From: Dudresnaya verticillata
Lineage: Eukaryota
NCBI GenBank assembly: GCA_977862235.1
Contig: OZ374560.1
Span: forward strand, 2,914,001-2,941,251
Direction: 5' to 3'
Length of the DNA: 27,251 nt
Part shown: one piece after another, positions 1,222 through 27,251 of the stretch
Layout of the letters: each line of letters opens with the position of its first letter
How positions within the stretch are numbered: position 1 is the first letter of the stretch
Notes under the pieces: model-generated
Database searches by the model: none
What the model saw: the letters and a program-made list of their open reading frames with translations, nothing else
Told to the model about the DNA's origin: nothing
Made by a program: the position numbers and the translations under genes

Positions 1222-4200
1222 CAGTTGTCTTTAACAGCCTTATGTGTAGCTCGGGCTGATGAGCCGCGGCTGCGAGTGACCTTTCCGGAAGGGTTTCTGG
1301 TTTCAGAAACTCTCCGTGGTCTTCCCGTTAATCGACACCCTCGAGGGAAATTCCTGTTGCAGAACTAACGCGTGTAAACAAGCACAAAGCGTCTGTGTAG
1401 AGGTGGAGGCAGTAAGCTTAAGCGAATTCGTGGTGTTCGAAAAGCAACGTGGGGGGCAGACTGGCCGGTTTGCGTAGGCGCAGCTGCGGGCGTGTGGGCT
1501 CTGAGTGTCGGAAACTCAACGAGGATTTTCAGTTGCCACCGCGCGGACTGCGGACTGTACCACAATGTCGGTGGTGAAATCACGAGCGTACGCTCGTGTC
1601 ACAGTGAGCAAAGCAGAAAGACTAGAAAGGAGGAAGCTGAGTGTCAGAAAACTCGTGCGCGAGAATTGTGAGTTGGTGTGGAAGGCGGAAAAGGGTTGCA
1701 GGGTCGAAACACTGCAGCGCATGCGCTGAAGAGGACTCGGCAGTCGGTATGGCCAGGACCGTTCGTCGATGTGACGATTGAGTTTCGGTGTTTTCTTCCA
1801 AGTTGGCGCGGCCGCGGCTAGAGCCGAGTCAGGTCGTGTTACCGCGGTAAAATCCTGGGCTTTCGGGCAGGGCAACATGCATTGTCATGGCATTGCTATA
1901 CGCGCGTGTGCACACTGTACACGCGCGTGTGAGGGCATCACGGATCACTGCGGATCAAAAGTCCGTGCAATCTGCACTTAGAAGTGAATTCACCACACAG
2001 TGAAAACTCGCGAAGACAGGGCACCACATGGAATTACGAAGTAGCCAATTGGCACAATGAGCCAGTCATGTCAGAGTACCGTTGGAGCGTCAGATGGTGA
2101 AAGCCAGTGCTGTCAGCATTCTGTAAGGTTATGTTAGTGTAAGAGCCCATTCTTGCACTGTATGGCTATTGTTACACGTTTCATTCGACATCTGAGAACT
2201 GTCTCCATGTCACACCTCCTGACTTGTGACGGCATCGATAGTTGGCGAAGACGCCTTCGTCGAGACCCTTCTTGTGAGGACAACTGCAGAAAATGAACCT
2301 TGTTGGCAAATTTCTTCCGACAATCGGGCCCAAACATCTCAGTAAGGTCGCAATGAATCTCTCTGCTCAAGAAAAACGAGAGGAAACGTGCAAATTGGGA
2401 CTGAAACGGGCTGTTTCCAAGGACATTATCTCCAATGCTGCTGGAACAGCTTGCCCATGTCTCTTAGTTTCCAAAAAACAGTCTCTCTGCATTGCCCCAG
2501 CATAAGAGGGGTTTGTTGTGTCGAAGAAAACTCTCGGGCATTCAAGGTGGCAAGAAGAGAGCCACCCGTCTCAAAACACATGATGTTTGAATCCTCCTGT
2601 ATCTTCTGCTTCTCTTTGTTTCCTGACACTCTTACCTCACATTAGAAGGGGTAATGAATCTATGTAATGTGGCGCCACGAGAACATGAAAACCTTAAACC
2701 GGGAGTGTATAACAGCCATGGTGACAAATGTCACAATACTCCAACGCAGCCTCCCATGTCAGTTAGCCGCTTAATATGTTTCTGAAACACTTCAAGACAT
2801 CACAAACACCCTGCAGTACCTCTGTAACACAAGACGTTTTATGCTCGTTGCGTCTTGACCTTAGTACTCTGCTGAGTGCTGAGTAGCAGTACTGTCCATC
2901 CTGGAGTTTCACAGACATCTTCTGACACCCATATAACGATCTCCAATGGTTTGGTATTTTTCCCTGGTTTTACTGAAAGGGTTTTCAGAAACGAAAACAC
3001 GAATCCCTTTAAAGTACCGATCTGTAGAATTTTGCAACCGAAATGACTCCATAAACATACATTACAGCGAGGTAAGGGGGTTTCACATCATACAAACAGC
3101 CCCTTCACAGTTGTATTACAATGCTCTGGGCTATTAGAGACAATTGGAAAGTGTTTGACTGAAACTCTTTTCGATTTGTTAGAAAGGAACAGGCAAAGGT
3201 ATCATGGACGATGAGTGCAACAGTTCTACCAAAAGGTTTTCAGAAACACAGCTTCCAGCAGAACTTCTTGACACGCTCACTGTGTATTCTAGGGGTGCTG
3301 GAGAGACCTTTTCTGTAGTTTTTCGGAAGGAAATTGCTTTCCTCAAGCCCCAGTGACAGTTCAAAGTTGTCGTTTCGAAAGTGTTTCTGATACTCAATGA
3401 ATAAGTGCCTGTCCTGCACAACTTCCAGCTTTAAACCATTCCATTACCATCCTTTGTTTGCTCGGTTTCAAAAACACCAAAATAGCACGCATCGGTGACT
3501 AGTATTAGGGCGCAAACAACCAAAGACCGGCATGCACTATGCAGGTGGTTTCAGACATGGACCCGGATTCTAGGGCATTTGATCCCGATTTTCATATGAT
3601 GCCGTCAGATTAGGCTGCCCAAAATGCCCGTAAAATGCCTCCAGAGCTCTGCCTCACTCCGCTAGCAGATCCGAGCCCAAGGCAATACGATACACGGTAA
3701 TGAGGAGCATTGTCCACACTATTGCAACATCTGAGTTTCTGCAACACACACCAGAACAAACATACGATCTCACACATAAGCAGACATGGAAACACACAGT
3801 CAAACGAACACCCACGCAAAAGATGGCTTATCACACAAACGGGCAAAGACAAGAATGTATACAGGTATCACGTGCTGCCGAGTACTGTGCAACGCATGCG
3901 TCTGCAGTCTAGTCTGCAGACGCATGACGAGCTCGTCGAGTAGGCATCCGTCTCGGCGGACATTCAAATGTTCGAGCACATGCACACACAATCACATTTC
4001 TTCTGAAGCGGGCGCAGGCACAGGCTCAAGTAGACGCACGCACACGCACAAATTCAGTTTCTGATACAAACAGAGTTCGTTTCTGACACACACAATCCAG
4101 CAACCTGTGGGCCCGCAGGGAAAGGAACCATTTCGCGAAACCGAGGTATCGATGACGAGTGCACAGTCATGTTACAGCGTTTTCGGAGCAGCTGCGCGCA

Positions 4201-6681: not shown

Positions 6682-6803
6682 GAGATATATTGCATTCCTT
6701 TCCGTGGTGTTGTTTGGTTGTGCCATTTGGATAATAGTCAGTAAAACGCGCCTCGCTCGCGTGCGCCTTTGCGCGTAGAGCAAATCCTGTCATCGAGCTA
6801 GAC

Positions 6804-8428
6804 TTGACTGGGCAAAGTTTTCATCCCCATGCAGTAAATGGGGGCAAGGGAGAGGAGGGGTCATTTCCGTATATTCCGTCAGCTGACGAATCCAGCGACG
6901 CAAACAACGATATATCTGCACCAGAAACAGGTTCCGCGGAAGATGCAGATGCCCAGCCTATGCAGAGTATGCCATGGCATGAGACGGTACCATTTGCAGA
7001 ACCCGCGCAGAAAATACAACGGACATCCAACGGTAGAACGTCAGTTCCTGCGAACAGATTGAACGAGCAAGAGTTGATGAGTAGGGCTATGCGCGAGTGC
7101 ATGCGCTGCTTTTTATGGATTGCTCATAGCCGGAGAGATGGCATTGAGATGCGTTTGCTGCACAATCAGTTCGAAGGTCGGCAAGTTGCAGCAATGGCTG
7201 CTATGAGCGAGGTTAACGTTGTTAATGAGCTCGCAATTGCAGTTCTATGGCAAGTCATGAAGAAGCCCCCTAGACCTGTTTGCGTAACTATTCGCAAGCA
7301 GGGGACCGGAGTTCTCAGCGTGACGTGTTCCTGTGATTCTATGTATGCCAATTCTGTTCCCAACGTCCCTCAAGGTATGCGCTCGTCTATCGCATTCAAA
7401 TGCGATGATACAAAAGTCTGTATGAGCCATGAAGGTCTGTATAGGATATTTCACAGTACGTTTCAGGACCCTGAAAAGGTAGGCAAGTACAAGACAACGG
7501 TTCTGAGTGAGAATGGTCGCCCTCCTTTAATTGAGCTTGTGAGAAGGGCCCAACCTTGGTTGAGAAGCCGCAGTGATAATCTTGGGGCCCTAGCTTGGGC
7601 ATTCTGGATATCATATGATACGAAACGACATCTGTTTGTTCCGATCCTGAAGAAGAGGAGAAAGGATTTCCGTTGTTCCATGTGTAGAGGTTCCTCGGAG
7701 CGAAGAGCTTCATGTAACCATGAAAGAACTTGCAAGTCTTCTGCTGGTGTTTCTGAAACTGTTTCTGAAAATCCTTCTACAATGGCAACCTCCGGTACAC
7801 CGGCTAGTCGTCTTCCATCTGCCACAAATGCCGATGACATGAAGTACGCCGGGACTAATACAATCCAACCGCTTCTTCCTTGTGAAGGAGAACGGAAAGC
7901 CATGGAAAGACTGGCCAAAAAGATACGTTTGCGTGATGAGGATACCATTTGCAGACACTGCGACCTAACAGTAACAAATCCGTTTTTGTCTACAGACAGG
8001 TCAGCCTTCATACTTTGGCGAGGGGAAGGGTTGTGGTTTTCTTCGGAGATTGGAAGTGTCCCATGCTAGCTTGCAGGAAATGGAACTACTACACGGGTGC
8101 CTGGGATGCTATCTTCCCATTCCGACCGGACTCAGCATTCACTACATCATTTCTCTACACAATGGTGGATGGAACTGCTCGGCAAGGGGTAGCATTGCGC
8201 GGTTCCTACTCAATTATGAAGTCTCTGTATCGTGGAATGTTGGACGAAGCTCCTCCCTTCCCTTTGAAGTGTGCGTTTGAAGAGGCTTCAGCAGCGAGAG
8301 AACGCGTCAATGAAGCATTTAGATTGTTTCTGAAAACACTTGATTTAGATGATGATGAGTTCACCAGTGAAATATTTTCTTGCTCAGAATGCGAGGTACC
8401 CTTGACTGAAGGCGACCGGCGGACCTTG
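6804..8428 (+). pseudogene. 5' half of a Cys-cluster (SWIM/CxC-like) KDZ/Zisupton-like transposase
   Basis: ORFs 6804..8069 and 7949..8479 are joined by a frameshift near 7970. Motifs: VTCSCD, FRCSMC…CNH, ICRHC…LHT…WKCPMLAC…YTGAWDAIF…FTTSFL, FSCSEC. The reading frame is cut by the TIR element at 8429. Confidence 0.6.
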
Positions 8429-9422
8429 AACACTAATTTCGCCGGCTACAGAATTTCCAAAACAGAACAGAATTTTTGAGGGTCCTTGAATCCCGGCGTT
8501 CGATAGCGCGTTGGAAAGGGGGCGCTACCCTGAGAATAGTGGTGCCAACAGATCGGAGCAAACGCAAATAGTTTCGGAGTTATGCACTCCGGCATATGGG
8601 CCCCCCCGGGGTCGAAAGTTCCCGAAAGGTGTGATTTTTCCGAAAAGTTCCAATTAAAAATTCTCCAGAAATTGATTCTGCCCCGTCCCGCCGCCCGCGC
8701 CCGCGCCCCCGACCGCACACCGCATTCTGGCGACTTCCCGCCGCATTCCGACGCGCTCGGACTTGGCTTCCCACCGCATTCCGACGCGCGCTCGGCCACC
8801 TCCTCACTTCCGACAGCCACTCCCACCATCACCCTTTCTGGTGCTGCTACTGGCCCACACATTCTGCATTCCGGCGCGTGCGCACGCGCTCTGCTTCTGC
8901 CTTGCGCGTAATGAGCCGCGCTTCCCCACCCCCTCCCAGACCCGTAGTGCCGCTCCCCGCCCCAGTCCGGACTGTGGCCGCACTCTGTCTCACGCTCCCT
9001 GCCGTTCACCCATACCTCGCCGTCACCCTTCCCCGCTCACCGCGCCCGGCCGCATTCTGACACGTCCACATCAAGTTGCCGCATTCGGGCGCACGGTCAG
9101 CCCCTCCCAGCAGTCCCCCGACACGCCTCCTCACCCTTCCCCGCGCTCCTGCGCACCGCGCCCGGCCGCATTCTGACACGTTCACATCAAGTCGCCGCAT
9201 TCGGGCGCATGGTCAGCCCCGCCCAGCAGTCCCCCGACACGCCTCCCTCACCCCTACCCCGCTCCCGTGCGGCACGGCCACCCGCTTTCTGACCCGTCCT
9301 CACAACTGGACTCAGTACCCGCCCGACCGGGTACTCTACCAGGTAGCTCAGCCGCTTGCGCACCCGCGGTTCGGACTTAGCTTGTGGCGTAAACGGGCGC
9401 TACAGGCGTCGAATGGCCTTGC
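8429..9422 (+). repeat. Left terminal inverted repeat (~1 kb)
   Basis: Collinear inverted match to 22962-23957 with scattered substitutions. ORF-track translations 8763+/23622- and 8582+/23803- are near-identical. Confidence 0.95.
9023..9262 (+). repeat. Tandem duplication (~117-bp unit) within the TIR
   Basis: CCGCGCCCGGCCGCATTCTGACACG…ACATCAAGT…CCGCATTCGGGCGCA…GGTCAGCCCC…CCCAGCAGTCCCCCGACACGCCTCC occurs twice. It is mirrored at ~23120-23360. Confidence 0.9.
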
Positions 9423-10092
9423 ATTTCTCGTGTGCTGCATCAACCTGAGAGTATAATTTACTGGTTGTAGCTGTTTCTCGTATCAAGAGCCGGCATACCT
9501 AACTAACAACGGCGATTGTCTGATTCTCTTCTGGACGAGCTGCGGTAGACGTCTCTTCGTAAGAGCTTCGAATTCGACCATTACGGTCGCGACGCCGACA
9601 GTACCAGTCCATGGCTGCTTAGTCGCTGAGTATATGGATGCCTTGTACTTTCCGTCCCAAGCACCCTTACCGTCATACGCCTCGTACCATCTTATATACA
9701 GATCAGTAGCCTTTCCCGTAGCGTCCTGCAGAACATCTAGAATCTGTCCAACCCAAAATGGGCATCGTGCGGTGGCGTTCTCCCTCACAACGGCAACGAA
9801 GTAGTTCTTCGTGTACTGCAGGTCTGAAGGGGGGTCACAGTCTCCTCCTCACCGTCATCCCCTTCCGGTACGTACTCCAGCGCCACTCTTCCGCTGTACT
9901 TTCCCCTTGTCTCAAATATGTGTCCCATATCCCAATGAAACGTTTCCAGCCTATCTCTGTACACGTGGTCCCGCAATTCCTGCAGCTCCCTCATCTTTCC
10001 CGTGTCATACACACGTGTCTCTTCAGAACGAAACCTGTCGTTGACTTCCTTCAAATCTGGTGGCGATTTGACCACTGTTGCTGGAGTCTTGC

Positions 10093-11828
10093 TGTCGTGC
10101 AAACGTCGTATCGAAGACGGAGAACGCCTCCGGGCCGATCGGGAGCCCGGTGGTTAGCCGCTAGTAGCGAACTGGGTAGAGCGGGTAGAACACGCCTAGG
10201 GCGGACTGTAAACACCCAGGGCGAGCGGACGAGGGGGCAAGGAAACCCAAAAGGAAACACGTTAGCAACGAGTTGAAACGTGGAAACACGGATGTGTGGT
10301 GCAAGGGGAGGCGAGCCCTTTTTCGCTGAAAGCGGGCAGACTAAATACGTCGACCGACGGAGAAACCGCCACCGGCGCTCACCACCGCCGTTGGCGCGCG
10401 AACACGTCATCGACGGCTCATTGGGGCGCGCGCGCACACTGTGCGCCGCGCGCCACGCGGGCACTGTACGGTGATGGCCCGACGTGGCGCCCCGGGGCAC
10501 TGTAGCACGGATCCGGATGCGATCCGGATCCGGCATCCAGATTGGCTATCTAGATCGCCTAAGCTGTAAGGTATGCGCCTGTAAGGCTGCGGGTATCAGC
10601 ATTGCTGGCCCGATCCGGATGGGATCAGGATCGGACAAGTACCAGATTAGATCTAAGACGCACGCTCTACAGTGCGCGCGCACGCGCGGCTGTAAGGCAC
10701 ACGCGTCCACGTGTACGTGTAAGCACCCACACAGGGGATTGTACGACGATCTATCAGACGCGCGGCTGCATGCGACGCGTGATCTGTCAGACGCGCCTCG
10801 GGACGACACGTGTCCCGAGTTCCCGCGCTACACGCACGCCGCCGCGCCGCCGTACTATACTTAGGTAAGCCGTCCCAGACGTCACAGTAAACACCCGGGC
10901 GAGCCGGCCTTGGTCCAGACTTCCCCGTTCCGCACGCGCGCATTCTACCGCTGTGTACGGCTAAGCGTCTACCTCCCGTGCTTCCACGTCTACCATCGCC
11001 CTTGACGTGTTCCCCTTTCTCTTTCTCTTTTCCTTCCTTTCTGCCTCGGGCGTTTACAGTCCGCCCAAGGCGTGCCCCTTTTGCTCTACCACCAAGTCGC
11101 CCACGGCGGGTCTACCTACCGCCGAGGGCGCAGCTACCCACCGAGCCCCGAACTGCTCGGCGGTCTATCGTCACTGGACGTTTTGCACCACAGGATGGGT
11201 AGACACTTATGCTTCCGAGCAGCGGTAGGGTGCGCGCTGACGCGGAGGGGAAGTCTAGACTCAAACCGGCTTGCCGGGGCTTTACTGTTACGTCCTGGAC
11301 GAGGTGCCTAAGTAGTACTATAGCGCCGCGGTGCAGCGGCTGCATGACGTAGTGCGCGGGATCCCGGGACGCGTGTCGCGTGGAGGTGTGTCTGACACGT
11401 CCCGGGACAATGCAGCCGCTGTGCGCTGGTGCGTGCGTCTCACAGAGGCGTGCTCGCACGGTGCTGTAAGCGATCCGGATTCGGATCGCGATTGACACGT
11501 ATTACAGCGCGTTTCCCTTACAGTGGATCCCGATGTCCGATCCGGATGTCGGATCCGGATTCGATCGGGATCCGGGCCAATCCGACAGTCGACTCCCTTA
11601 CACCTCGTTGATCTCGATGCATCATCCGGATCCGCTCTGCAGCGTTGCGCCGTACAGTGCGTCGGGCGTGCGCTGCGCTGGGTGGCGGCGCCCGCGCGTC
11701 CGTAGGCCAATCGTCGATGACGTGTTCGCGCCAACGGCGAATGAGCCGTTTCAGGCGACCGTCCGTCGGTCGACGAGGTTATCGGCGCCCATGGCGAGGA
11801 AATAAAAGCCGGTCCCCCGTGCGCCACA
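10093..11828 (-). mobile_element. Solo LTR (~833 bp of its own sequence) inserted in the transposase and split by a second solo LTR
   Basis: Begins TGTCGTGCA and ends TGCGCCACA. The 5-bp TSD is CTTGC (10088-10092 and 11829-11833). Its two parts are a diverged inverted homolog of 10295-11192. Confidence 0.9.
10295..11192 (+). mobile_element. Solo LTR (898 bp) nested in a related LTR
   Basis: Perfect 10-bp terminal inverted repeat TGTGGTGCAA…TTGCACCACA. The 5-bp TSD is GGATG (10290-10294 and 11193-11197). A TATA-like sequence lies at ~10853 and a CT-rich tract at ~11010-11045. Confidence 0.93.
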
Positions 11829-14739
11829 CTTGCCAGGGTCAGGAGGGGATAGTATGAACCCCTTATGCTCTCCTCCTGTCTGCAACGGAACCCAGTCATC
11901 CGCGCATGTCATTCTCAATTGACAGCCTGTCACGAAAGCTGCAACAGATTCTGCCTCTTCCGTCGCAGCTGGACCCACACGGTGGAATCTGAAATAGCGA
12001 TAGGTCGTGAATGCCTCAATATTACCAATGCATCCTTCCTGCCGACACAGGCCTGAGAAATTCGCAATTTGAAGCATGCGACTGACAACTGGTTCTGGAC
12101 TGTACGACTGCCGAAGCTCTTCCATCAATTCAGTCATTGTGACTGCGTCCCGAACTTTAAGCCGGCGTGCCGTTCACGAAAAGGCCTGATCTATATCTGT
12201 GTGAGTGTGCCCGACGGGCAGGAAAGACACGAAGACCTCTTGGAACACACCCCATGCAACGAGACTCTCCAGTTATGAGAACAAAAAGGTATTTTTGTTC
12301 TCTCTCGAACAGTTGTCTACTTGTAGAAATAAAGTCCCTTGTAGCTCTCCTCTGGACTGTTTGTCCGAAAGAGTTCTGTGCAACGCCTCGATAATGTGGT
12401 TCGCGCCGGTCTCGAACTCACCGGTCATTGTGTACAAGTGCAGACGCTTCTCAGCCCTGTGTTCAAGCACCCCAATAAGTTTCGCTTTCATGGCATGCCC
12501 AATGCTGGATTTGGACGACACCACAAAATGGGGAAGTCCAAATGCGGACTGATCAGCACCATCCACTATGAGGGAGCAATACTCTTGCGGCAATAGTATC
12601 GCCTTTTCACATTTTTCTGATATTCACGTCTCTCTGCCTGTATGAATTTCAAGTGAATGTTGCACCGCTCATGCAGGTGTTCAGTGCCTGCTCCAGAGGT
12701 CCCTGCCTGAGCAAGTCGCTCGCGAATGAGTTCGCATTCGCTGCACTTTGCAAATCGGTGTGTCTTTCGCACCTTAATGCGGGAGCAACTGTGTTTCCAT
12801 ACAAAGTAAAAGTAACTCTGACACGGAATATCCCTGTTTCTGTACAGCCTGGTGTGGTCCAATTTGAAGATGTCGTACACAACTGATTTCTGAAAGTAGG
12901 GGAGGTGTGACTCCCCATTATCGGGCATTGGTTCAGCAGTGCTGTCTGTAAGACGTTCAAGGAAGCAAATGATAGTATCTTGCTGATGGGATGAGGTATC
13001 ACGCCTCGCATTGTTTGGGAGTTGCAGCTTCCGGGACTGCATTGTGCCTTTTACAGACGTCTGTAACTCGCGGGAGAATCCAAAGGCCTGCTCCAAAAAG
13101 TTGTAACAGACAGGCTGGCGGTTGAAAAGTATTTCATCTTCCTCGTGTCCAACAGATTGCATAGATACGTTCGCCTTGCTTCTACGTCCATTCCGGCAAT
13201 TCTGCGCGCCTCCGCCTTTACGTACACTTGCTCCACACTTTGGGAGCACTTGTTCCCGATGCAGCATCTCATTGACTGCGTGTTTGCGCGTTCCAGGTCT
13301 TTGAACAGGTGCCTACGTCTCTTCTGAAGACTTCCTCTCCCACTGAATGTCCGCTGCTTTCTCTTCCTGTAAGTATACTTTCGCTTCGTCCTGACCTGCA
13401 CCTTCTGAAAAGGGTCATACGCTTCGTCATCACTTTCCGACACGTGTCGTACGGCGTCCGCATCATCATGGCTGGCCTCCCTCAAATGCTCTCGCGGTTC
13501 ACTCATTTCCTCACTGCTCGGAGCATTGCAAGGCGGGGGTGTTGTTCGAATTGACCGCGCTGCGGCATCCGCTTGCGGCCCCGAACTTTGTTGGAGGGGT
13601 GATGTTGGCCTGGTCGTGTCAACTGGTGTCATCTGCTGGGGCGATGCGGTAGGGGCCACTGCTGCGGCAGTGTTTTCTGCAGTTGACGTCGGGGGGCAAT
13701 TGCTCAGTATTGGGTAAATTCTTCGACGAACTATGCCCTTTCGTGGAGAGTACAACCGTCTCTGGCACAACGGCGCGATTTCTCGATTGCCGAGCTCCTG
13801 AATGTAGTTCACATCCCATGCATGAAAACCCCCACCCATCTCCCCAAGTGTGTGCGGAACTGAGTCCGTCGTCGTGTACTTGTATTTGTACTGAAGTTTC
13901 TCATACGGTTGCATGATTTGTGCTCGGTAAACCACAACCAGCTTCTCCCCTTTTTTCTGACTGGGAGACAATTTGTGGCCATGGAGGGTGACACAATACC
14001 TGCCAGACTGGTCTGTGTCCTCTTTTTTCCCCGGTCTCTTGACAATAGCAGTGCCGACCATTTCCCTGTCATACAGAAGAGCAACATGCCCTTCGTCGCT
14101 TGATTTGCCTCCTCCTTTCTTTGCTCCATTTTCTCGCTCAGCGCAATCCGTAGTTGCCGGGCTCATTTCCATGTCGTTCAAAATGTCCTGCGACAGTATC
14201 TGCACACAGCTTGTGAGAGTGCCACTCGTTCTGTCTTCCCTTCACGCTCTCAGCAGAGCGCCCACTTTTCAGTCTGTTAAGGCACCTGGCCAACCTGGCG
14301 GGGAGGCGCAGCCCTTCGCAGCGAAACGCTTGCGCATTAAATACCCTCTGTGATACCGCGGCGCGCCGCCTGTTGCCTGCTCTTGAGGCTTCACACCCGT
14401 GGAGCGGCACGAGTGGCTTCACGAGGTGCATCTGGGTTATTCTGCAACCCAGATTCTGTTTGTGATCAGATTCTGGTTCTGCACTTGGCCAATTACATTT
14501 CAGGTACAACTTTCCGCATGCATGCGGAGCCACACAAGCTGCAGCTTGTGAGAGGCGGACACATACAGCTGACGGTCACTCTGGGGTGAACTGGCAGTTG
14601 CAGTGCGCCTACATCACGAGTTGATATCGTCTGCAGACGCTTCCAAGGAAGTCGCGGCACAGCACGAATGGAAATGCTGCTGCTACAGTTGTCTCAATGC
14701 CTTAAGGTACTGCAGTAGCATGAGGGTTTCAGGATCGGC

Positions 14740-14900
14740 GAAGCACACGACAGGGCTCAGGACAAAGACGATGGACATGTGGCGCCAGTAGAGTGGCGTC
14801 GGAAACTTCAGCAAACAAATGAACCTGATCATCAAGGAACCCCCGAAAACGAAGTTTTTTGTTGCAACGGACACATTTGAAGTGCGCATTCATTTTCAGA
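14740..14900 (+). pseudogene. Possible captured glycosyltransferase (fucosyltransferase-like) gene fragment
   Basis: The frame reads TMDMWRQ*SGVGNFSKQMNLIIKEPPKTKFFVATDTFEV. F(Y/F)(L/V)ATD preceded by F…M…P resembles GT-B fucosyltransferase-like proteins. The match is short and degenerate. Confidence 0.3.
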
Positions 14901-15780
14901 CCGGCAGTTGTGCCTCGGTACAGCTTGACCAAGTCGATGCACGCTAGCTGTGATCGCGTCTGGGACTTTGCCGCTGTTGGCAAGCGGCTCTCCGACAGGC
15001 TGCCATTGTAGGGAATAATCCCGAACGGGGCGAGAGCGCTAGGCGTAACAAGGATCAAGAGTGTGAAGACAGGGCAAGTCGACAGCGATTACTTGCTAAA
15101 TATTGATAGCGAAGCAAGTGGCATCCTTTGACTGTCGGTACGATCACGATAATGGATATGTTTGGGGGCGCTCAGCGAGGCTTAAGTGGTGAAAATAGTC
15201 GCAACAGCACAAGGCAGAAAGTCGTACAGATGTAGTCAGACATTAACAAACAAGTGACCTCACCTCTCGTGAAGAATATCTTTGAACGCGAGAGTAGGAA
15301 CAGATGAGTTGAGACTTTGAATCAGATTCGACAATACGGCATTTCTGATGGGGAATCTGAATGTGGATATCCGCTCACGGCAGTGATGCAGCTTTTATCG
15401 TTTTCTACAGACTGTATTCAAACTATTAACGGCAAAGCATCACGTCGAGCTTTTAACCAGCTCGAAGCGCTGCGCTATCATAAGGCGAAGAAACTGAACT
15501 CGCGCGCAGTGTTGTTTGTTTTTATTAAGTCGTTGCCTGAGTAGCATCACGTTTGAACAAAAGTAGGCAATACCACAATCTAAATGAAGCAGCGCACCAT
15601 TCCACAAACGTGGTTACCATATTTATCTATAGATTCGTGAATTTGTTGCTCTGTCAAAGAGTTATCTTCACCTCTAGAGACAACAGGTAGAAGAAAGAGG
15701 GCTGGACAGCGGAAATTAATTGCAGGTGAAGGATGGCACAACAGGTGAACACGTGAGACTAACCCACCACCTGCTACAGC

Positions 15781-15999
15781 TGATGGTTTGTTGTGTTGGT
15801 TTGGAATGGATGGCGAATGTAACAGATTCTGTGCTTCCTACACTCTGACCGAGCGACTTCAACATCCAATTATACGCCTACCAAACAACCATGATGGTTT
15901 GTTGTGTTGGTTTGGAATGGATGGCGAATGTAACAGATTCTGTGCTTCCTACACTCTGGCCAAGCGAAGTCAAAGTCCAATTATACGCCTACCAAACAA
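15781..15999. repeat. Tandem duplication, 111-bp period, 2 copies
   Basis: TGATGGTTTGTTGTGTTGGTTTGGAATGGATGGCGAATGTAACAGATTCTGTGCTTCCTACACTCTG occurs identically at 15781 and 15892. The second halves of the two copies differ slightly. Confidence 0.95.
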
Positions 16000-16258
16000 T
16001 AAAAAGAGTCAACAGCACTACCGCATCCTGCGAAGAGGAGGGAACGTGACACTGGACGAAGCTGGTGCGTTGGGTAAAACTGTTCAAAGAAAGGTAAGGG
16101 ATCGTGGTTCCGACAACAACCGCAATTCGATCCTTACAAGCCGAACCACGGAAATCAGAACGGCCTTGACTCCCTCTGCAAGACAATACACGCTCTCCTT
16201 TTTGTAATTGACCTTGCGTTCCTAGCAAGCTGCCTGCACCATCATTTGCGGCACTTTC

Positions 16259-17800
16259 TATACTATGCCACAGCATTGCGGAAACTGTTCGCGCAGGACA
16301 TGGGCGATGTGGTGAAGTGAAAGGCACACCTGTAAGGAGAGCTGATCAAGCAATCCCAATAAGGAGTGATCTCACACGGCACCGGGGTGGTAGAGCTTAG
16401 TTCGTAGACCGAAGGGAGTACCTCGAGCGGCAACACCTGTAAGGAGTAAAGGGACGCACCAGACAAGGGGGACCGTACAGTGCCAGGAAAGCTACACAGG
16501 GACGGAGGTAAGAGGAATCCGTGCACGGGGCTGGCGAGGGGAAACCGTAAAGGACTATGAGGGTAAGGCTTAGGGTAAGTCACTTTGCCCAGGGTTGCGT
16601 ACCCGTTTACTGTAGGACTCGCGGTGGCCACCCATTAATATACTGGGAGATACGCCCCGCGGTCCGGTCCGTGTGGGCCAGACCCCAATGGGTCTGGTCC
16701 ACCAGGTGGGTCCGGCCCTACTGGTCCCGGTCACCGTTGCGGACATGCTCGGCATTCTTATTGGCCGGCTGACACTACGTACTGTACAGCATGATTATAA
16801 TTACCTAATTACAAATAAATCAACTACTTGACTCCTATTCGTGGTGCGCGCAGACTCCAGCAAGGTATACAGTGCTACTGTGTCGCTGCACTCCGTTTCG
16901 GCTTTTGGTGCCAGCTCACCACTGCGCCGGGCGCGGGTCGGCTCAACCGTCGTCCGCACTCCGAAACGGCCGCTTCACCACAGGCGAGATACAGCGCCTC
17001 GCCCTCGTTCATGCCATCAATGAGAGTAAATTGCTCGCCTCCTGTTTCAAGGCCAAGCGTGAAGCGTCAGCCGCCGTTCGCGTCCAGCGAGCACGCAAAC
17101 ACATGCGGCAAGTTTTTGAGGTAGGCCATATCGGCCTGGCGCGACGTCCTTGGTGATAGCGTGTACGCTATTACAACGCGACCCACCAGGAAACGTCTGC
17201 GATGACGATGAGCATCCAGGCGGCCGGGAAGCGGTTGCGGCGGACGACGGACAGGCGAAAGTGTGGCTCCGCGGAGTGGGACATAGCGAAGGGGCGGGCG
17301 GTGGGGTGGGGTGTTGTGGAGCACATCGCGGATGCGGATCACTATGGTCACCTGCGTGGCCAGGTCTGCGGCCGCGGTGGTCGGCACGGGCAAATGGTCA
17401 GGCTGGCGCGCGTCGACCGGGGCGTGGTCGAAGAGCGAGGCGGGCGGGTGCGGGAGTGGGTTGCGCGAGTCTGCGCGGGACTCGTGCAGGAAGGTGTTGA
17501 GCGCTTGCACGTCGGCTTGGCAGTGGTCCACGCGCGCGAGGGAGGAGAAGTGCAGCAGGTGGTGCAGCGCGATAACCTCGACGGCGAAGCGAGGGTGGAG
17601 CTGCGTGTCGACGCGGGCGTTGGCGGGGATTGTTCCGGCGGCGAAGCGGCGCAAGTGGTCGAGCGGGACTTGCAGGCGGGCGGATGCCACGGCGAGGTAC
17701 GTGGGGGTGTCGGCGGCGCGGCGGACGAGGCGCAGCACGGACTGCGGATGAACGAGGCACAGGTGCGACGGGTGCAGGTTTTTGTGCGTGGAACGGGAAG
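16259..17800 (-). pseudogene. Captured host-like gene fragment (GC-rich codons), interrupted by a solo LTR
   Basis: ORF 17924..17067 has a strongly GC3-rich core (~17200-17780). It continues through one TGA and across the LTR: …DANGG*RFTLGLETGGEQFTLIDGMNEGEALYLA|HVLREQFPQCCGIV*. Confidence 0.5.
16308..16982 (+). mobile_element. Solo LTR (675 bp)
   Basis: Perfect 10-bp inverted ends TGTGGTGAAG…CTTCACCACA. The 5-bp TSD is GGCGA (16303-16307 and 16983-16987). An internal TATAA lies at ~16796 and AATAAA at 16814-16819. Confidence 0.92.
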
Positions 17801-18720
17801 ATGAGCAGCAGCAGGAGCGGGAGCAGCGTCGAGGCCAGATAGATTGTGGAGTTTGCTGGCTCTCAGGACCTGTTCCCCAATACTGATATTGCACTTTGGG
17901 CTCCTGCGTTGCCGTGAAGCGCAATATCTGTTCTCATAGCAATGTGACTTGGCTGCATTCAGAAGCTGTAAAGGTGTTGACGGCGGCCCAATGGAAAGAC
18001 CCTTTTACAAGCTTATTCAATATCATTGGACAGAAAATCTATACAGGTTTTTCAGTGCGCAATTTGCCACATCAAAAGAACAGCTATTTGGCCCGGCGCT
18101 CTCGCCCCACCTGTTCCCTGATACTGATATTGCACCCACAGGTGTTGACACCTCCCACCCCCGAGAACCTGTTCCTCGTAAATTGACCGCCGCGCCCCCC
18201 CGCTGGCACGCCGCTGGCAACGGTGTGCCAGTACTCACCGACACCGTGTGTGGCATGCTATTTTACTCGCAGTATCAGCACCTGGCCAGGCTGGCCTCAA
18301 CTTCAAAGCCCGGCCAAGTCGGCTGGGACAGCGAGCAGCATACCCTAATTGACTTTGTTACATCTCGCCCTGCAGGTCTTGTGAAACCTGCATTCTACCA
18401 ATTCCAACTGTACGGCCTGTGCTAAGCATAAGTTCTGATGGAGACTGCCCACACCCAGTGAACAATCCACGTGACCTCCCGTGCCATGTCGGAATTTGCG
18501 GCACATCCATGTCGTACTCTCGCCGTCCGGTGTGTCGAAAGCCCGTATGGTGCCAGTCGAAAACGGCACCCTGCAAACATGAGCCAGGGACGTAAAGAAC
18601 TTCTTGCGGAAGGTTTTCTGAACAGAATCTGGGCAACTCGTCGGACATGCAGTACCCCTTTCCGTACTCTTTCAAGGAGAGCGGTTTTCACGTGCACAGG
18701 GAGTCTTTCTCTCGCACACC

Positions 18721-21700
18721 ATGTCGAAGCGCAAGAAGCTGAGCAGGGGGTCAAGTGAGCCCTTGAGGAAGGAGGATATGGCACAGGCACTGTTTGGAGA
18801 TGTCATGGAGGGGTCTACCAACATTCGAATAGACCCCAGGTCCTGTGTTCCGATGATTGATATAAGGGACATCTCGAGATCCGGTGTTGAGAGGCTCAAG
18901 AAGATTTTTAGGGGTGGTGGGACGAGGAGCGCTAACTGCAACAACGGGTACATTGCCGGTTCTGATGCGCCCATACTGGCTCGCCTAACAGGTCCATTCA
19001 GGAGTTTCATTTTTGAGTTTCTCCGAGCTAAACGGAATGCGGATGGGACAGAGTACACAGAGAAACAGATGAAAGAAGAGGCCTCCAGTCGGTCGGAGTG
19101 GTTCGGTGTTGTTGATGGCATGCATCGACTTATCGCCATTATGGAGCTAATCGATGAAGACCGGGAGACATGGAAGGGGTTTGCTTTGACTGCCACTGTG
19201 CTTAAAGGGGGGCACAACATCCAGATTCTGAAGCAACTGGCTCTTCATCATAACAGAAAGCACGACTCCAGCTTTTTTGTAGAGACCACGTTTTACGATC
19301 AGATATGCGGTCTTAGGAAAGAGGCAGACGGTCTCGAAGCCAGTAATGGGAAGACTCCGACTGCGACGGCAGTTGCCGAAGCATATGATTGATGCAGTCA
19401 CCTATCGAAAAACACTATCAAACAGACAGCGGCAACCGTTCTTCGTCTTGACCGTCGCGTTATTGATGTAATTGGGAAGATAATGAAGGAGGAGGTCCCT
19501 GAACTAGTAACTATGCAACTGTTGACTGCTTCCGGAAAGGCCATAGACTCAAATGTCGCGATGCAGAATCTGGATTGTATAGTATACAGACGCTTCATTC
19601 ACGTCAGTTCCATCAAGTCTTCCAAGGCCTTTATGAATGCAGGCAGCTCTGACAACGGCATTACTGTTCAAATAGCTACTCTGTACAGGCTTCGAGAGGT
19701 GTCAAGGACACACAATTTCAAACCTGCTTCGGCCAAACACACGCAAGAGCAATTCTTGAAAGCTTCAGCCGCCCTTTCCGAGACTGGAAAGTTTGAAGCG
19801 ATGAGGGAGAGGACAGAATGGCCGTCAGGCATGAGTACATTAAGAGAAAACCTGTTACACACTACGAAGCTGGACGTCGAGGTCATCATGAATCGAGGTA
19901 ATGACCGTACACTGTTGAAAACAATAGTTGAGATGTACAGAGAGTGTTGTCCGGAAGAGGCCCCAGTGAAGTTGCAGAAGTACAAAGATCTGCAAACTGT
20001 GATGGATTCGACAGACGTCAGACGTGATGATGCTGTCATGACCCGCCCGGGTTCCAATGAATGTGGAACAAAAGATTCTGACGGTCAACAGAATTTGGAC
20101 TGCACATTGTCACCGCAGGTGGACGCTACCGGAATATCTAATGACGACGAGATTTTAGACTTAGTAACATCAACCAATTCGAAAAGGGAAGAAGGTCGCG
20201 AACCAGCAGAATCTGGACAGGCACCCGTCCAGAACGCAGACCCTAAAGCTGCATGTGCAGCCAAAGACCTTTCTGTACCGGAAAAGAGTCCCACAGACCC
20301 CACTGCATCAACTGTGTCATCAAAGCAGTCTGTTCGCCTCAACATGGGTACTAAGCCTGTGCCGGTGTAGGACGGATCGCTTTCTGTTCCAATAGATTAT
20401 CTTGCGGAAATGAAACTGACATGCTTCCACATGACATGGCAGAGCTACGACAGTACCGTAAGGAAGGAAGGTGACAAACGATTCGATTTAATCCTCACTG
20501 ATCCACCATACGGTACACCGAAATCGCAGTCTAAGTCGGGGAGGTCATTCGATAAACCTCAGCGAGGAAGACATTAAGAAGATAGTTGAGTTCTCGAGGC
20601 GCGTACTTGTAGCAGGGGGGTGGTCGTTTGTTTTCACGTCATTCCTGAACTTCGGTATATTCCACGATGCTCTGAAGAAGGCACAATTCATGTGCCCAGC
20701 ATACCCATTCTTATTCTCCGAAGACCCCAAGACCATGCAGGAACATCGGGGGAGCGATATGCCCCAGAACTGTGTGGAAATAGCCGTTATGGCGCTTGCC
20801 CCAGGTCAGCATGGCGGAGGGTTCTCGCTCGACCTTAGGAGCGAGTATCACTGCATCCCCTCCCCAGAAAAGCGGAAATTCGTGTGCATGTCCTCTCTAC
20901 CAACACCGAAACACAAGTTGCTACGCCCAGGCACCAAGTCCCCAGTTCTGGTCGAAGAGAAGTCTCCCGAAGTACTTGTGGAGATAATGACAATATTCTG
21001 TCCGGAGGGCGGGTCAGTTCTGGATATGCACAGCGGAACCATGACGACTGGGATTGCAGCTCTCAGAACAGATCGTCGGTGTACACTAATCGAATCACAG
21101 GTGGAAACATTCAAGCTGGGGGCTGAACGTTTGCGTAGGCTTGCCACGGAAGCATATGAAATGAAGACAGGTCGTAAACGTTTGGAATCAAGTGCTCATG
21201 ACGAACTGAATGGTATCGGTGAGGCAGCAAGAGGTAGTGTTGTCAAAACAGATTCTGCTCAACCAACAAACCATTCCGTAACGAGGAAGGGACCTGAAAT
21301 GTCCCATCTGACGACACCGTCCGAGCACGTATTGGATGACCGCGAAGAGAGTATCGAGAAGCACGGCAGGAGTGAAGACATAGTTGTAGGAAGTGTGGAG
21401 CTAAATGAAAAGTGCAGGAGAAGGAAAACACCTGAACCTTGTGCAATGCCCAAGGCCGGAGACAGAGTCACGCTTCTTGCAGATGATAAGGAAGTGGGGG
21501 AGGCCGTGTTGCATCCTGAAAAGACTCCAGGAGGGAACTGTAATGAACGCTTGCACGACCACGATCTGTCAGAATCTGCCAAACCAGGGGAGCATCTTGT
21601 GGTCGTGTACAGTTTGAAGGTCATGGCGGAGTATGAGCTAAGTTCGTATCCGTATATATTCAAGGGACTAGAGGACCCTCCTGCCAATCTCAAGGGCCTA

Positions 21701-21751
21701 AACGGCTTGTTGTTCTCGTGGGACTTTCACAACATGAAGAAGATTGGGTAG
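18721..21751 (+). pseudogene. ParB/Srx-like domain + beta-class amino-DNA methyltransferase (DPPY; N6-adenine or N4-cytosine) fusion, ~1010 codons
   Basis: WFGVVDGMHRLIA (19099-19137) is a ParB-like motif. Also FDLILTDPPYG (DPPY at 20500-20511), RRVLVAGG, and EKSPEVLVEIMTIFCPEGGSVLDMHSGTMTTGIAALRTDRRCTLIE (SAM-binding motif I, 21017-21052). In-frame stops lie at 19390 and 20368, and a frameshift at ~20553. Confidence 0.88.
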
Positions 21752-22250
21752 GAATTATAGTCAGTACAGTACTATTGTCATAGGCCGAATTGAACATTTC
21801 TCGAGCATCCGTATTCTGAACATGTCTTTGCGTCTTGCTTCCGCCATGATCCATGAATTCGACGTCGTTCAGGCACCATTTACTCGAATAACGCCAGTGC
21901 TTCCACGTGCCGTACTATGAACGCGGGGGTTATATTTGGTCCACCAAACAAAATCTGTCACGGAAGGCTGTCGCGAGTGTGGCACATGTACCGTACTGCT
22001 GCAGCTGTTGGCAACGTTGCGGCATATTGGCAGTAAGTGATTGATCGACTACGTACCGGAGTGCGCCCAGGGCTGTCTCCAACGCATATGAAATGGACAC
22101 CCGTGAGATCGTGGAAAGATGGACTATGTATTGTTCAGGAACGCAGTGATCCTGTCGCAGTTAAAGGCCTCGGCCATTTCGGAAAGAGAGCTGAGATGAA
22201 ACGAAGTGTTCGTTCACCACCATAATCTGCTGTGACCAGAATAACGCTGT

Positions 22251-22781
22251 ATGGAGACCATGGATGACTTGATTCTGGATGTGGAAAAGCTGTACAACGC
22301 CGTTAAACGTCGGATGGGGGAAGATCTTAGTCGTGAGGCACGAAATTGGACGCCCCAAAGCCCTAGCAGTGACGACGACATTCTGGACAACCACAATGAC
22401 CTGGATCGTGCCCAAATGGCTTTGGAATCATCACAGCAATTTTACGCAGACAAGACGATGATGGAGCATTCCCACCATCAGAAAGCTTTGGAAAAGTTGT
22501 ACAGGTTGTTGCTGAAGAAAATCTTTCTCGTGGGAAGGGGCAAGTACGTACACGGTGCAGCCCATGCTGTAGACTTTGCGATCGTCGAAACGCTGCACAG
22601 GGGCGGAGAGAACGCATATCAACTGGACCGCTACACACGTCTGCTTTGCACCAAATTCTACATGTCCAACAGCCGCGCAATGAAACCGGAGGTGAGGATG
22701 TGCATCATGAGGAGCCTGCACAATGAACTGTCTAGTTGTGAAGGGCTGTATATGCGGAAGCATGATAGCAGCGATTGCTAA
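22251..22781 (+). CDS. Orphan ORF (176 aa) next to the right TIR; possible accessory protein of the element
   Basis: ATG-initiated and uninterrupted, with protein-like helical composition. No family recognised. Confidence 0.4.
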   Translation: METMDDLILDVEKLYNAVKRRMGEDLSREARNWTPQSPSSDDDILDNHNDLDRAQMALESSQQFYADKTMMEHSHHQKALEKLYRLLLKKIFLVGRGKYVHGAAHAVDFAIVETLHRGGENAYQLDRYTRLLCTKFYMSNSRAMKPEVRMCIMRSLHNELSSCEGLYMRKHDSSDC

Positions 22782-22961
22782 CTTTAGAGATAGTAAAGTG
22801 GTGGCCTTCTCCCATGAGCACAGCAATGCGCTTCATTCCATTTGGCGGTCTACAATCGGGGATGTGCCCCATTGAAGTATGGCATGGTCCTCAGCTGCGG
22901 CGCAATAAACGCGGCGCAGACAACGGAATGCAATGGGTTTAGGCTGGCATTGTGCAGAACC

Positions 22962-23957
22962 GCAAGGGAAATCGACGCCTGTAACGTCAGTCTACGCCAC
23001 AAGTTAAGTCCGAACCGCGGGTGCGAAAGTGGCTAAGCTACCTGGTAGTGTACCAGGTCGGACGGGTAGTGGGCCCAGTTGTGAGGACGGGTCAGAACGC
23101 GGGTGGCCGTGCCGCACGGGGGCGGGGTAGGGGTGAGGGAGGCGTGTCGGGGGACAGCTGGGCGGGGCTGAACATGCGTCAGAATGCGGGCACTTGATGA
23201 GGACGTGTCAGAATGCGGCTGGGCGCGGTGCGCAGGAGCGCGGGGAAGGGTGAGGGAGGCGTATCGGGGGACTGCTGGGCGGGGCTGATCGTGCGCCAGA
23301 ATGTGGGCACTTGATGTGGACGTGTCAGAATGCGGCCGGGCGCGGTGAGCGGGGAAGGGTGACGGCGAGGTGTCGGTGAACGGCAGGGAGTGTGAGACAG
23401 AGTGCGGTCACAGTCTGGATTGGGGCGGGGAGCGGCACTACGGGTCTGGGAGGGGGTGGAGAAGCGCGGCTCATTACGCGCAAGGCAGAAGCAGAGCGCG
23501 TGCGCACGCGCCGGAATGCGGAATGTGTGCGCCAGTAGCAGCACCAGGAAGGGTGATAGTGGGAGTGGCTGTCGGACGTGAGGAGGTGGCCGAGCGCGCG
23601 TCGGAATGCGGTGGGAAGCCACGTCCGAGCGCGTCGGAATACGGCGGGAAGTCGCCAGAATGCGGTGTGCGGTCGGGGGCGGGGGCGCGGGCGGCGGGAC
23701 GGGGCAGAATCAATTTCTGGAGAATTTTTAATTGGAACTTTTCGGAAAAATCACAAATTTCGGGAACTTTCGACCCCGGGGGGGCCCATATGCCGGAGCG
23801 CATAACTCCGAAACTATTTGCGTTTGCTCCGATCTGTTTGCACCACTAATCTCAGGGTAGCGCTCCCTTTCCAACGCGCTATTGAACGCCGGGATTCAAG
23901 GACCCTCAAAAAATTCTGTTCTATTTTGGAAATTCTGTAGCCGGCGAAATTTGTGTT
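22962..23957 (-). repeat. Right terminal inverted repeat (~1 kb)
   Basis: Inverted copy of 8429-9422. Confidence 0.95.
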
Positions 23958-23961
23958 CTTG

Positions 23962-25031
23962 GGACTCAGTTCCGATATTGATATCTCTGCACTCAAGAGG
24001 CATTTCAGTTCAGAGGAATCGTCCTGGACGGAACATCGGCTGGAATTGTGGCCAAGCTCCCGCAGTACGACCGTCTGAGTACTGGCATCCCCAAACCGAA
24101 ACGATCTTTGAAGTCATCTCTGCTGAGAAGATCTGATCAGGTTAAGGCCCTGAAGTTATTTATGAAGCTAGCAAGGTTTGCTCTGTCCAAGATGGAGAAC
24201 GTGGTTTCGTTAAAACTGAGTGGACAACGCGGCTTGACAGAATCCGGACTTGATATCTTACGGAATTGTGTGGACAGGGATGTATGCTACCGCCTCAGCT
24301 CTACCTCCAGAGGTAGCGGCGGTCATAACGAAGAATGCGTGCAGAAGCAGGTAGGTTGTGAGCTGGAGAACAAAGAGTTGTCTGAAACACTAAGAGTATT
24401 ATTCAAGTTGCGATTGAACAGAATCGATACAGCTGATATCGAAGCGGGAGCGGAGTCGGACGAATCCGATTTGCTCGACTTAATCACTGACTCCGAAAAT
24501 AGCTGTTCTGATGGGAGCAGAGATTTAATCTCGTCGCAACACTGGGTCGCAGAGTTACGTCACGGTTTCCATGTCGAACAAGACCTCTCTCTGCTGGATG
24601 CCACGCTGGACGTTTTGCAATACTGCACGTTAGAGAACTGCGCGCCAACTTTTCTTGCCCCAATACACACTGATGGCCCTGGTATTGCACCTACCAGTGC
24701 AACAGCGAGAGGGAGAGAGAGATTCGAGTTCTCTGCGGAAGGGCAACCAAGTATGAACTTAACTTATACGGTCCGAAGTTCTATTAGGGCCCATAAGGAG
24801 CTCTGCGAAGCCCTCGTAGCTGCAGTATCTCTAGAGCACCGCCGCGTACGGCAGCCAAATGAGACCCCAAGAAGACCACAAAGACCTGTCGGATTGCGTA
24901 GAAACTGGCCGAACGTAGAACGGACCTGCGCGCCGGTAGCAAGCGTGGTAGAGCGGGAGCGCGCAGACGAAGTCATGGCCAGTATCCGTGATGAGGACGT
25001 AAAATGGCCAAGTCGGGGGTTCAGTTGCTAA
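23962..25031 (+). pseudogene. 3' continuation of the KDZ-like transposase, truncated
   Basis: Joining at the TSD and removing one TTCAG of the duplication at 24004-24013 gives FSCSECEVPLTEGDRRTLGLSSDIDISALKRHFRGIVLDGTSAGIVAKLP…, in frame with ORF 24048..25031. FxCxxC…IVLDGT is the expected first catalytic-Asp context. The downstream catalytic motifs are absent. Confidence 0.6.
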
Positions 25032-25947: not shown

Positions 25948-27251
25948 GGTTTTAGGGGTTTAGGGGTTTTAGGGGTTTAGGGGTTTTAGGGGTTTAGGGG
26001 TTTAGGGGTTTAGGGGTTTAGGGGTTTAGGGGTTTAGGGGTTTTAGGGGTTTAGGGGTTTAGGGGTTTAGGGGTTTAGGGGTTTTAGGGGTTTAGGGGTT
26101 TAGGGGTTTAGGGGTTTAGGGGTTTAGGGGTTTAGGGGTTTTAGGGGTTTAGGGGTTTAGGGGTTTAGGGGTTTAGGGGTTTAGGGGTTTAGGGGTTTTA
26201 GGGGTTTTAGGGTTTAGGGGTTTAGGGGTTTAGGGGTTTAGGGGTTTAGGGGTTTAGGGGTTTAGGGGTTTAGGGGTTTAGGGGTTTAGGGGTTTAGGGG
26301 TTTAGGGGTTTAGGGGTTTAGGGGTTTAGGGGTTTTAGGGGTTTAGGGGTTTAGGGGTTTAGGGGTTTAGGGGTTTAGGGGTTTAGGGGTTTAGGGGTTT
26401 AGGGGTTTAGGGGTTTTAGGGGTTTTAGGGGTTTAGGGGTTTAGGGGTTTAGGGGTTTAGGGGTTTAGGGGTTTAGGGGTTTAGGGGTTTAGGGGTTTAG
26501 GGGTTTAGGGGTTTAGGGGTTTAGGGGTTTAGGGGTTTAGGGGTTTAGGGGTTTAGGGGTTTAGGGGTTTAGGGGTTTAGGGGTTTAGGGGTTTAGGGGT
26601 TTAGGGGTTTAGGGGTTTAGGGGTTTAGGGGTTTAGGGGTTTAGGGGTTTAGGGGTTTAGGGGTTTAGGGGTTTAGGGGTTTAGGGGTTTAGGGGTTTAG
26701 GGGTTTAGGGGTTTAGGGGTTTAGGGGTTTAGGGGTTTAGGGGTTTAGGGGTTTAGGGGTTTAGGGGTTTAGGGGTTTAGGGGTTTAGGGGTTTAGGGGT
26801 TTAGGGGTTTAGGGGTTTAGGGGTTTAGGGGTTTAGGGGTTTAGGGGTTTAGGGGTTTAGGGGTTTAGGGGTTTAGGGGTTTAGGGGTTTAGGGGTTTAG
26901 GGGTTTAGGGGTTTAGGGGTTTAGGGGGTTTAGGGGTTTTAGGGTTTTAGGGGTTTAGGGGTTTAGGGGTTTAGGGGTTTAGGGGTTTAGGGGTTTAGGG
27001 GTTTAGGGGTTTAGGGGTTTTAGGGGTTTAGGGGTTTAGGGGTTTAGGGGTTTAGGGGTTTTAGGGGTTTAGGGGTTTAGGGGTTTAGGGGTTTTAGGGG
27101 TTTAGGGGTTTAGGGGTTTAGGGGTTTAGGGGTTTTAGGGTTTTTAGGGGTTTTAGGGGTTTAGGGGTTTAGGGGTTTTAGGGGTTTTAGGGGTTTAGGG
27201 TTTTAGGGGGTTTAGGGGTTTAGGGTTTTAGGTTTTAGTTTAGGGGTTTAG
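25948..27251 (+). repeat. Telomere, (TTTAGGGG)n with TTTTAGGGG variants
   Basis: About 1.3 kb of tandem 8-mer with the G-rich strand running 5'->3' to the end of the sequence. Confidence 0.98.

Follow-up and report, generated by a model that had tools for sequence, protein, structure and literature searches.

The window analysed here, a 27,251-nucleotide stretch of Dudresnaya verticillata DNA, contains a whole transposon with terminal inverted repeats (TIRs) that carries two divergent genes, one for a transposase and one for a ParB-like protein with a DNA methylase. Each gene encodes a copy of one domain of ~100 residues, probably mobile, which is predicted to be an SH3-like barrel (Table 1). 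We are highly confident of the identity of the element and of the shared domain taken together. The type of element and its cargo are already known; the shared domain is the part of which our searches found no description.

Table 1. Positions of the transposon and its features in the window.
Feature	Position	Strand	Details
Whole TIR transposon, Sola-like	8429..23957	.	15,529 bp; AACAC...GTGTT termini; CTTG direct repeat on both flanks
Left TIR	8429..9428	+	~1 kb; 7 same-strand CCGCATTC copies
116-bp tandem repeat within left TIR	9032-9299		tandem repeat
Broken transposase gene	9483..14172	-	barrel, low-complexity linker, Cys-containing region, DUF7869 core, C-terminal domain
Insertion splitting transposase	10093..11828	.	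1,736 bp; TG...CA ends; 5-bp duplication CTTGC
Shared barrel, transposase copy	13789..14085	-	predicted SH3-like, pLDDT 94.8
Broken ParB-like + beta-class N6/N4 DNA methylase gene	18721..21751	+	VDGMHR; DPPY at 20500; DMHSGT at 21023
Shared barrel, methylase copy	21467..21748	+	predicted SH3-like, pLDDT 93.1
Open ORF	22260..22781	+	173 codons, uninterrupted; between methylase and right TIR
Right TIR	22956..23957	-	939/1002 columns identical to left TIR (94%); 6 copies of CCGCATTC

The element, its genes and its surroundings

The accessible part of PMC10741241 lists as Sola features a 4-bp target-site duplication, TIRs of 11-1124 bp and a DDD-type transposase. The element fits Sola in having a 4-bp duplication, with CTTG on both sides, and TIRs of ~1000 bp that lie within the published limit of 1,124 bp. 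A boundary with a 2-bp TT duplication and GAACAC termini is formally possible. A CACTA/EnSpm identity was rejected, as CACTA is present, two bases in, at the left end only, the right end has CACAA and there is no flanking 3-bp duplication. The AAC terminus and the cargo match Ectocarpus Sola1-1 as partially described and so point to Sola1, these pointers being drawn from features and not from a comparison of transposase sequences.

Sola1-1_Ec32, according to the accessible part of PMC12477816, is a giant Sola element of 21.5 kb with 282-bp TIRs, AACCG termini, a 4-bp target-site duplication and an opposite-strand gene (1104 aa) for a ParB-like protein with an N4/N6 methylase, which is proposed to mark the element's own DNA. 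Set beside this description, the window element is alike in its opposite-strand ParB-like and methylase gene, its 4-bp duplication and its termini starting with AAC, but differs in having 15.5 kb, ~1-kb TIRs and AACAC at its ends. That part of the source does not mention a domain shared by the transposase and the methylase.

The transposase copy of the barrel forms the N-terminus of an ORF that aligns to the full-length DUF7869 transposase P0003 (residues 14-360), and the core of the window transposase is 63% identical to P0003. This core has three Asp-centred motifs, DGADQ, VDNC and HTDIDQ, which may hold the putative DDD-type catalytic residues; our literature search found no paper that names DUF7869. 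Three frameshifts (near 13130, 12615 and 9840) disrupt the reading frame, as do two stops (12275 and 12176) and the 1,736-bp insertion. The insertion, whose features would suit a solo LTR, has 62% GC, three nested inverted-repeat pairs and GATCCG-rich repeats. At the C-terminus of the transposase (9513-9833, minus strand) there is a second small conserved domain, FW-x-G-x-I...WYE, which is present in many relatives, has no Pfam match and is presumably BAH/PWWP-like.

The methylase gene, which has stops at 19390 and 20368 and a frameshift near 20555, aligns end to end with intact relatives of 922 and 944 residues across the ParB-like region, the methylase and the barrel, and the intact relatives P0001 and P0002 have the same barrel at their C-terminal end. 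P0001 matches PF01555 with 57.8 bits against a cutoff of 26.7, whereas the window fragment alone scores 23.4, below the cutoff. Motif IV (DPPY) precedes motif I, which is the beta-class N6/N4 order, and the methylase profile matches the DpnA-like 5hek with E 3e-14. The ParB-like region has the DG-x-HR motif, and its matches to DndB (E 0.0025) and DGQHR (E 0.07) are weak and come from one relative. The likeness to beta-class DNA amino-methylases (DpnA-like 5hek, CcrM 6pbd and PvuII 1boo) consists of DPPY standing before the SAM-binding motif; the window gene differs from them in being eukaryotic transposon cargo with a fused ParB-like region and barrel and with no restriction partner.

Since both genes are broken, which the earlier note had missed, this copy of the element is dead as sequenced. 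The breaks were judged by alignment to continuous relatives, and assembly errors could explain the frameshifts.

The 173-codon open ORF has no Pfam match and none from the collected proteins, and is possibly a third, accessory gene of the element. The 4.5 kb between the divergent genes (14173-18720) have a 111-bp tandem duplication at 15781-15999 and, near 17000-18000, a block of 64% GC in which long ORFs overlap; a 27-bp repeat occurs at 17868 and 18109. This interval is without a Pfam match and may hide another nested insertion or a decayed gene.

The window ends (25951-27251) in a telomeric array of ~160 copies of the 8-base unit TTTAGGGG, 2 kb from the right end of the element, and because these repeats close the window we read it as a eukaryotic chromosome end. 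A literature search for the telomere motif was uninformative; the repeat given for Bostrychia in the accessible part of bioRxiv 10.1101/2025.02.11.637652 is TTTTTAGGGG. The genes related to those of the window are intronless ORFs. Together with the red-algal cargo genes described below, the telomere repeat and the lack of introns make a red alga the likely host.

The element splits a long plus-strand coding region (6738-8428 and 23962-25031) that has Cys/His clusters and a CxxC...DG motif, which we associate with KDZ/Zisupton-type transposases. The locus thus looks like a transposon within a transposon; the split region has no Pfam or NCBIfam match. Outside the element (700-4100, 4840 and 7755) there are many occurrences of a short motif resembling GTTTCTGA(A/T)AC, which might serve the older host element as binding sites.

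A domain shared by transposase and methylase

The earlier note claimed that the transposase N-terminus (14085-13789, minus strand) and the methylase C-terminus (21467-21748, plus strand) are homologous, and both segments read as first quoted. BLASTP aligns them with 36/102 identities (35%) and E 4e-17. The Smith-Waterman score of the pair is 134, whereas shuffled sequences average 24.6 and score at most 57; as none of 10,000 shuffles reached 134, chance similarity is ruled out and the claim of homology stands. The same is true of the old divergence that the note proposed: the proteins are 33-35% identical, compared with 94% between the TIRs, which rules out a recent duplication. We found no third copy by tblastn over the whole window (next best E 0.85).

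Structure prediction gives both segments a small SH3-like beta barrel core of five strands, with two long inserted loops and pLDDT 93-95. These confident models bear out the beta-barrel fold predicted earlier, and since the two were built from nearly identical alignments they are not independent of each other. Foldseek returned no matches at E<=1e-3 from the PDB and viral sets. A wide structural search (VIA) returned mostly SH3, KOW, Tudor, PWWP, Sm, KorB-C and integrase-C barrels, all tied, with best Z 4.0-4.1 and alignments that cover ~50 of the 100 residues. First in the list for the methylase copy is the KorB C-terminal domain (Z 4.1, rmsd 2.2, 49 aligned), tied with dozens of SH3 domains; the PHF19 Tudor (Z 3.9, rmsd 3.1, 51 aligned) and the MSH6 PWWP (Z 3.5) are tied with SH3 and KOW. 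Because these matches are weak and tied, they do not single out Tudor or PWWP.

The suggested identity with a PF03017-like domain was not borne out: neither window copy (E<=10) and none of 85 aligned members (E<=0.5) has an HMM match to PF03017 or DUF8039. PF03017 (Transposase_23, Tnp1/En/Spm)/DUF8039 has a similar order of short motifs in a small transposon-borne domain, and this order is suggestive of a possible remote link. We found no Pfam model for the barrel, neither window copy matched the ESM Atlas at 0.9 or above, and the best PDB match by sequence had E 0.42. Our literature searches found no description of the shared domain; the Bostrychia supplements, which lay outside their scope, may list PAG domains or Sola carriers.

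Distribution and history of the barrel

A first-pass word-based search with the transposase barrel alone gave 56 candidates and found nothing; an HMMER-only search succeeded. A four-sequence profile run against 1.84 billion representatives found 197 proteins at E<=1e-3. Class counts rest on the 150 of these matches that were listed, less seven bacterial repeat/Ig-like proteins with partial multi-stretch matches (P0169, P0181, P0199, P0221, P0245, P0254 and P0264), plus other collected proteins. At least 153 carriers were collected, comprising 25 methylases, 20 transposases, 10 ParB/oxygenase-like proteins and 98 fragments too short to class (median 139 residues). Among the matches listed, the barrel is C-terminal in all methylases and N-terminal in the transposases and ParB/oxygenase-like proteins.

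Five of the ten ParB-like barrel proteins (P0236, P0239, P0241, P0243 and P0255) are long and end in an oxygenase-like region with HxD...HAG motifs. We took the ParB and 2OG labels from motifs and the literature; no PDB or family match confirmed them, and no Pfam, NCBIfam or PDB match names an oxygenase in these five. When the oxygenase-like and methylase groups were compared by HHalign, the sole alignment reported was the barrel, with probability 99.3. Three proteins of 510-749 residues (P0136, P0162 and P0226) have the barrel and the ParB-like part without the oxygenase-like end, and are either truncated or a fourth architecture.

Among the DUF7869 transposase relatives found by their catalytic core, 12 of 120 have the barrel. 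The core tree of 124 rows contains 16 carriers (these 12, three more that the barrel search brought in, and the window transposase), which fall in two clades: 3 of the 11 rows around the window (support 98) and 13 of 16 rows elsewhere (support 95). The N-terminal region of 17 of the 108 barrel-less transposases is as long as about the shortest barrel-bearing one, and in many cases the barrel-less proteins may be 5'-truncated gene predictions. In the barrel tree (56 rows and 102 columns, with the 98 unclassed fragments and one short transposase copy left out), the transposase copies of the window, P0003 and P0004 join all 26 methylase and 10 oxygenase-like copies on a branch with support 97/96, and the 17 other transposase copies lie across that branch.

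The clades of the core tree and the placement in the barrel tree together point to two captures, that of the window lineage being from an accessory gene. On balance, the window transposase lineage probably took its barrel from an accessory gene of the methylase/oxygenase kind, and the second barrel-bearing clade would represent a separate capture. A single origin of all transposase barrels is not rejected on the 102-column tree (p-AU 0.23).

When the 55 other barrels are ordered by identity, each window copy has its partner no higher than 10th or 11th, and at 33% the pair is at the family background (medians 28-36%). The best tree does not join the two as sisters, although such a pairing is not rejected (p-AU 0.21). 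Neither window copy is nearer to its partner than to the rest of the family, which fits a mobile module swapped among transposon proteins. The earlier note had derived a long residence of the methylase from a duplication within the element, and this argument is not established, because the barrel occurs in at least three protein classes and the window partners are neither each other's closest relatives by rank nor sisters in the best tree. The split between the window barrels is old, but its age is no measure of how long the methylase has resided in the element. We recovered no second locus with both genes: nine distant methylase loci lack the barrel (0/9), and genome and viral contigs gave none. 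The linkage of transposase and methylase therefore comes from this window.

Possible roles of the barrel

Of 56 barrel copies, 48 have a net charge at or below zero and one is at +5 or more. Conservation is concentrated in aromatic (Y 88%, Y 96% and W 97%) and acidic (95%, 77% and 90%) columns, with one His (91%) and also Pro and Gly. Only one conserved column is basic, at 59%, and both window copies have a non-basic residue there. Because aromatic and acidic residues are conserved and there is no basic patch, the barrel would appear to bind protein and not DNA.

Our best overall explanation, which we hold tentatively, at a little below even odds, is a mobile barrel on transposase, methylase and oxygenase-like proteins that likely binds a shared host chromatin protein ligand. 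For the chromatin-ligand mechanism itself we are a shade more reserved. The host would provide the ligand, perhaps a histone tail or a similar basic or methylated peptide, and by binding it the barrel would bring the transposase, the methylase and the oxygenase-like protein to the same chromatin. An intact element would, through its methylase, place 6mA or 4mC on its own DNA, a role also proposed for the methylase of Ectocarpus Sola1-1, and transposases with the barrel would be brought to the chromatin where the methylase acts. A host ligand suits the barrel because it needs no cognate partner: most transposases lack the barrel, and accessory genes change elements.

The main rival, which we consider unlikely but worth keeping, is that the barrel is a homotypic docking tag, with barrel-barrel contact tying the methylase (and the oxygenase-like protein) to the transposase so that it reaches the ends of the element. 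The C-terminal domains of KorB and of integrase have roles in self-association, and both are among the structural matches, though dozens of SH3 domains score level with KorB. In the proteins examined the barrel is always terminal, behind a long low-complexity linker, and in this window the methylase and transposase are partners in one element, which would suit docking, but the barrel is absent from 108 of 120 transposase relatives and the window pair is no more alike than the family background.

A second rival, improbable in our judgement, is nucleic-acid binding, in which the targets of both barrels would be RNA or the CCGCATTC repeats of the TIRs, by analogy with the TnpA domain; direct targeting of both proteins to DNA had also been suggested in the earlier note. 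The seven and six CCGCATTC copies in the TIRs, against one in the remaining ~24 kb, speak for it, since no 8-mer exceeded four copies in any of 1000 shuffled sequences; without tandem duplicates, however, the count falls to four, which 5 of 1000 shuffles equalled. The tied matches include the folds of KOW, LSm, PAZ and PWWP, and Spm TnpA, as far as the accessible part of its description goes (bioRxiv 10.64898/2026.08.24.746577), offers a precedent for a DNA-binding domain common to transposases and accessory proteins, though this is a tandem HTH. Against this, the mostly acidic or neutral charge disfavours direct DNA targeting by the barrel, and TIR binding could instead fall to the ParB-like part or to the body of the transposase.

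Least probable, by a little, is that the barrel works in accessory enzymes and was joined to transposases by recombination between neighbouring genes, with no role in transposition: its presence in just 3 of 11 rows of the closest transposase clade, and the loss of some conserved residues from the window transposase barrel (YPY to YKY), would agree with this, but it is intact in two diverged transposase clades, in 13 of 16 rows of one, and keeps LHG, YPY, PxxL and W there despite low overall identity.

The accessible parts of PMC12477816 and bioRxiv 10.1101/2025.02.11.637652 leave open what guides the methylase and oxygenase carried by algal giant transposons to their target; PMC4738411, PMC6431247 and PMC5751038, as far as their accessible parts go, are background on the topic only. 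The same preprint, in the part available, describes red-algal Plavaka accessory genes, of which PAG2 is a PF01555 methylase with SET and PAG3 is ParB with a 2OG oxygenase, and reports that PAG genes move between transposon families. The window gene is like PAG2 in being a PF01555 methylase carried as transposon cargo, and differs in joining a ParB-like region and a barrel, instead of SET, to the methylase; PAG3 is like the third barrel class by architecture only. The PAG carrier is Plavaka/EnSpm whereas the element here is Sola-like, and in that part of the preprint no barrel is described for PAG genes. Spm TnpA and VANDAL VANC, as partially described, are similar insofar as a domain is shared by transposase and accessory proteins and the accessory proteins act epigenetically on their own element, but they lead to loss of 5mC, whereas the window has a beta barrel beside a predicted methyl writer.

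Returning to the chromatin-ligand reading, a broader picture, rather unlikely as a whole, is of algal giant transposons with their own DNA-marking kit, in which an adenine/cytosine methyl writer, an oxygenase eraser and a transposase would be joined by an undescribed barrel that serves all of them as an address tag; Sola transposases would have taken it up on two or more occasions, coupling self-methylation to transposition. The significance of the find is limited insofar as the element type and cargo were known, the window copy is dead and the function of the barrel is inferred. A barrel common to a writer, a putative eraser and a transposase would nevertheless offer a small, well-folding handle of ~100 residues on cargo targeting, and its ligand, once found, would give the targeting rule. 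The barrel profile also recognises accessory genes that are otherwise unannotated.
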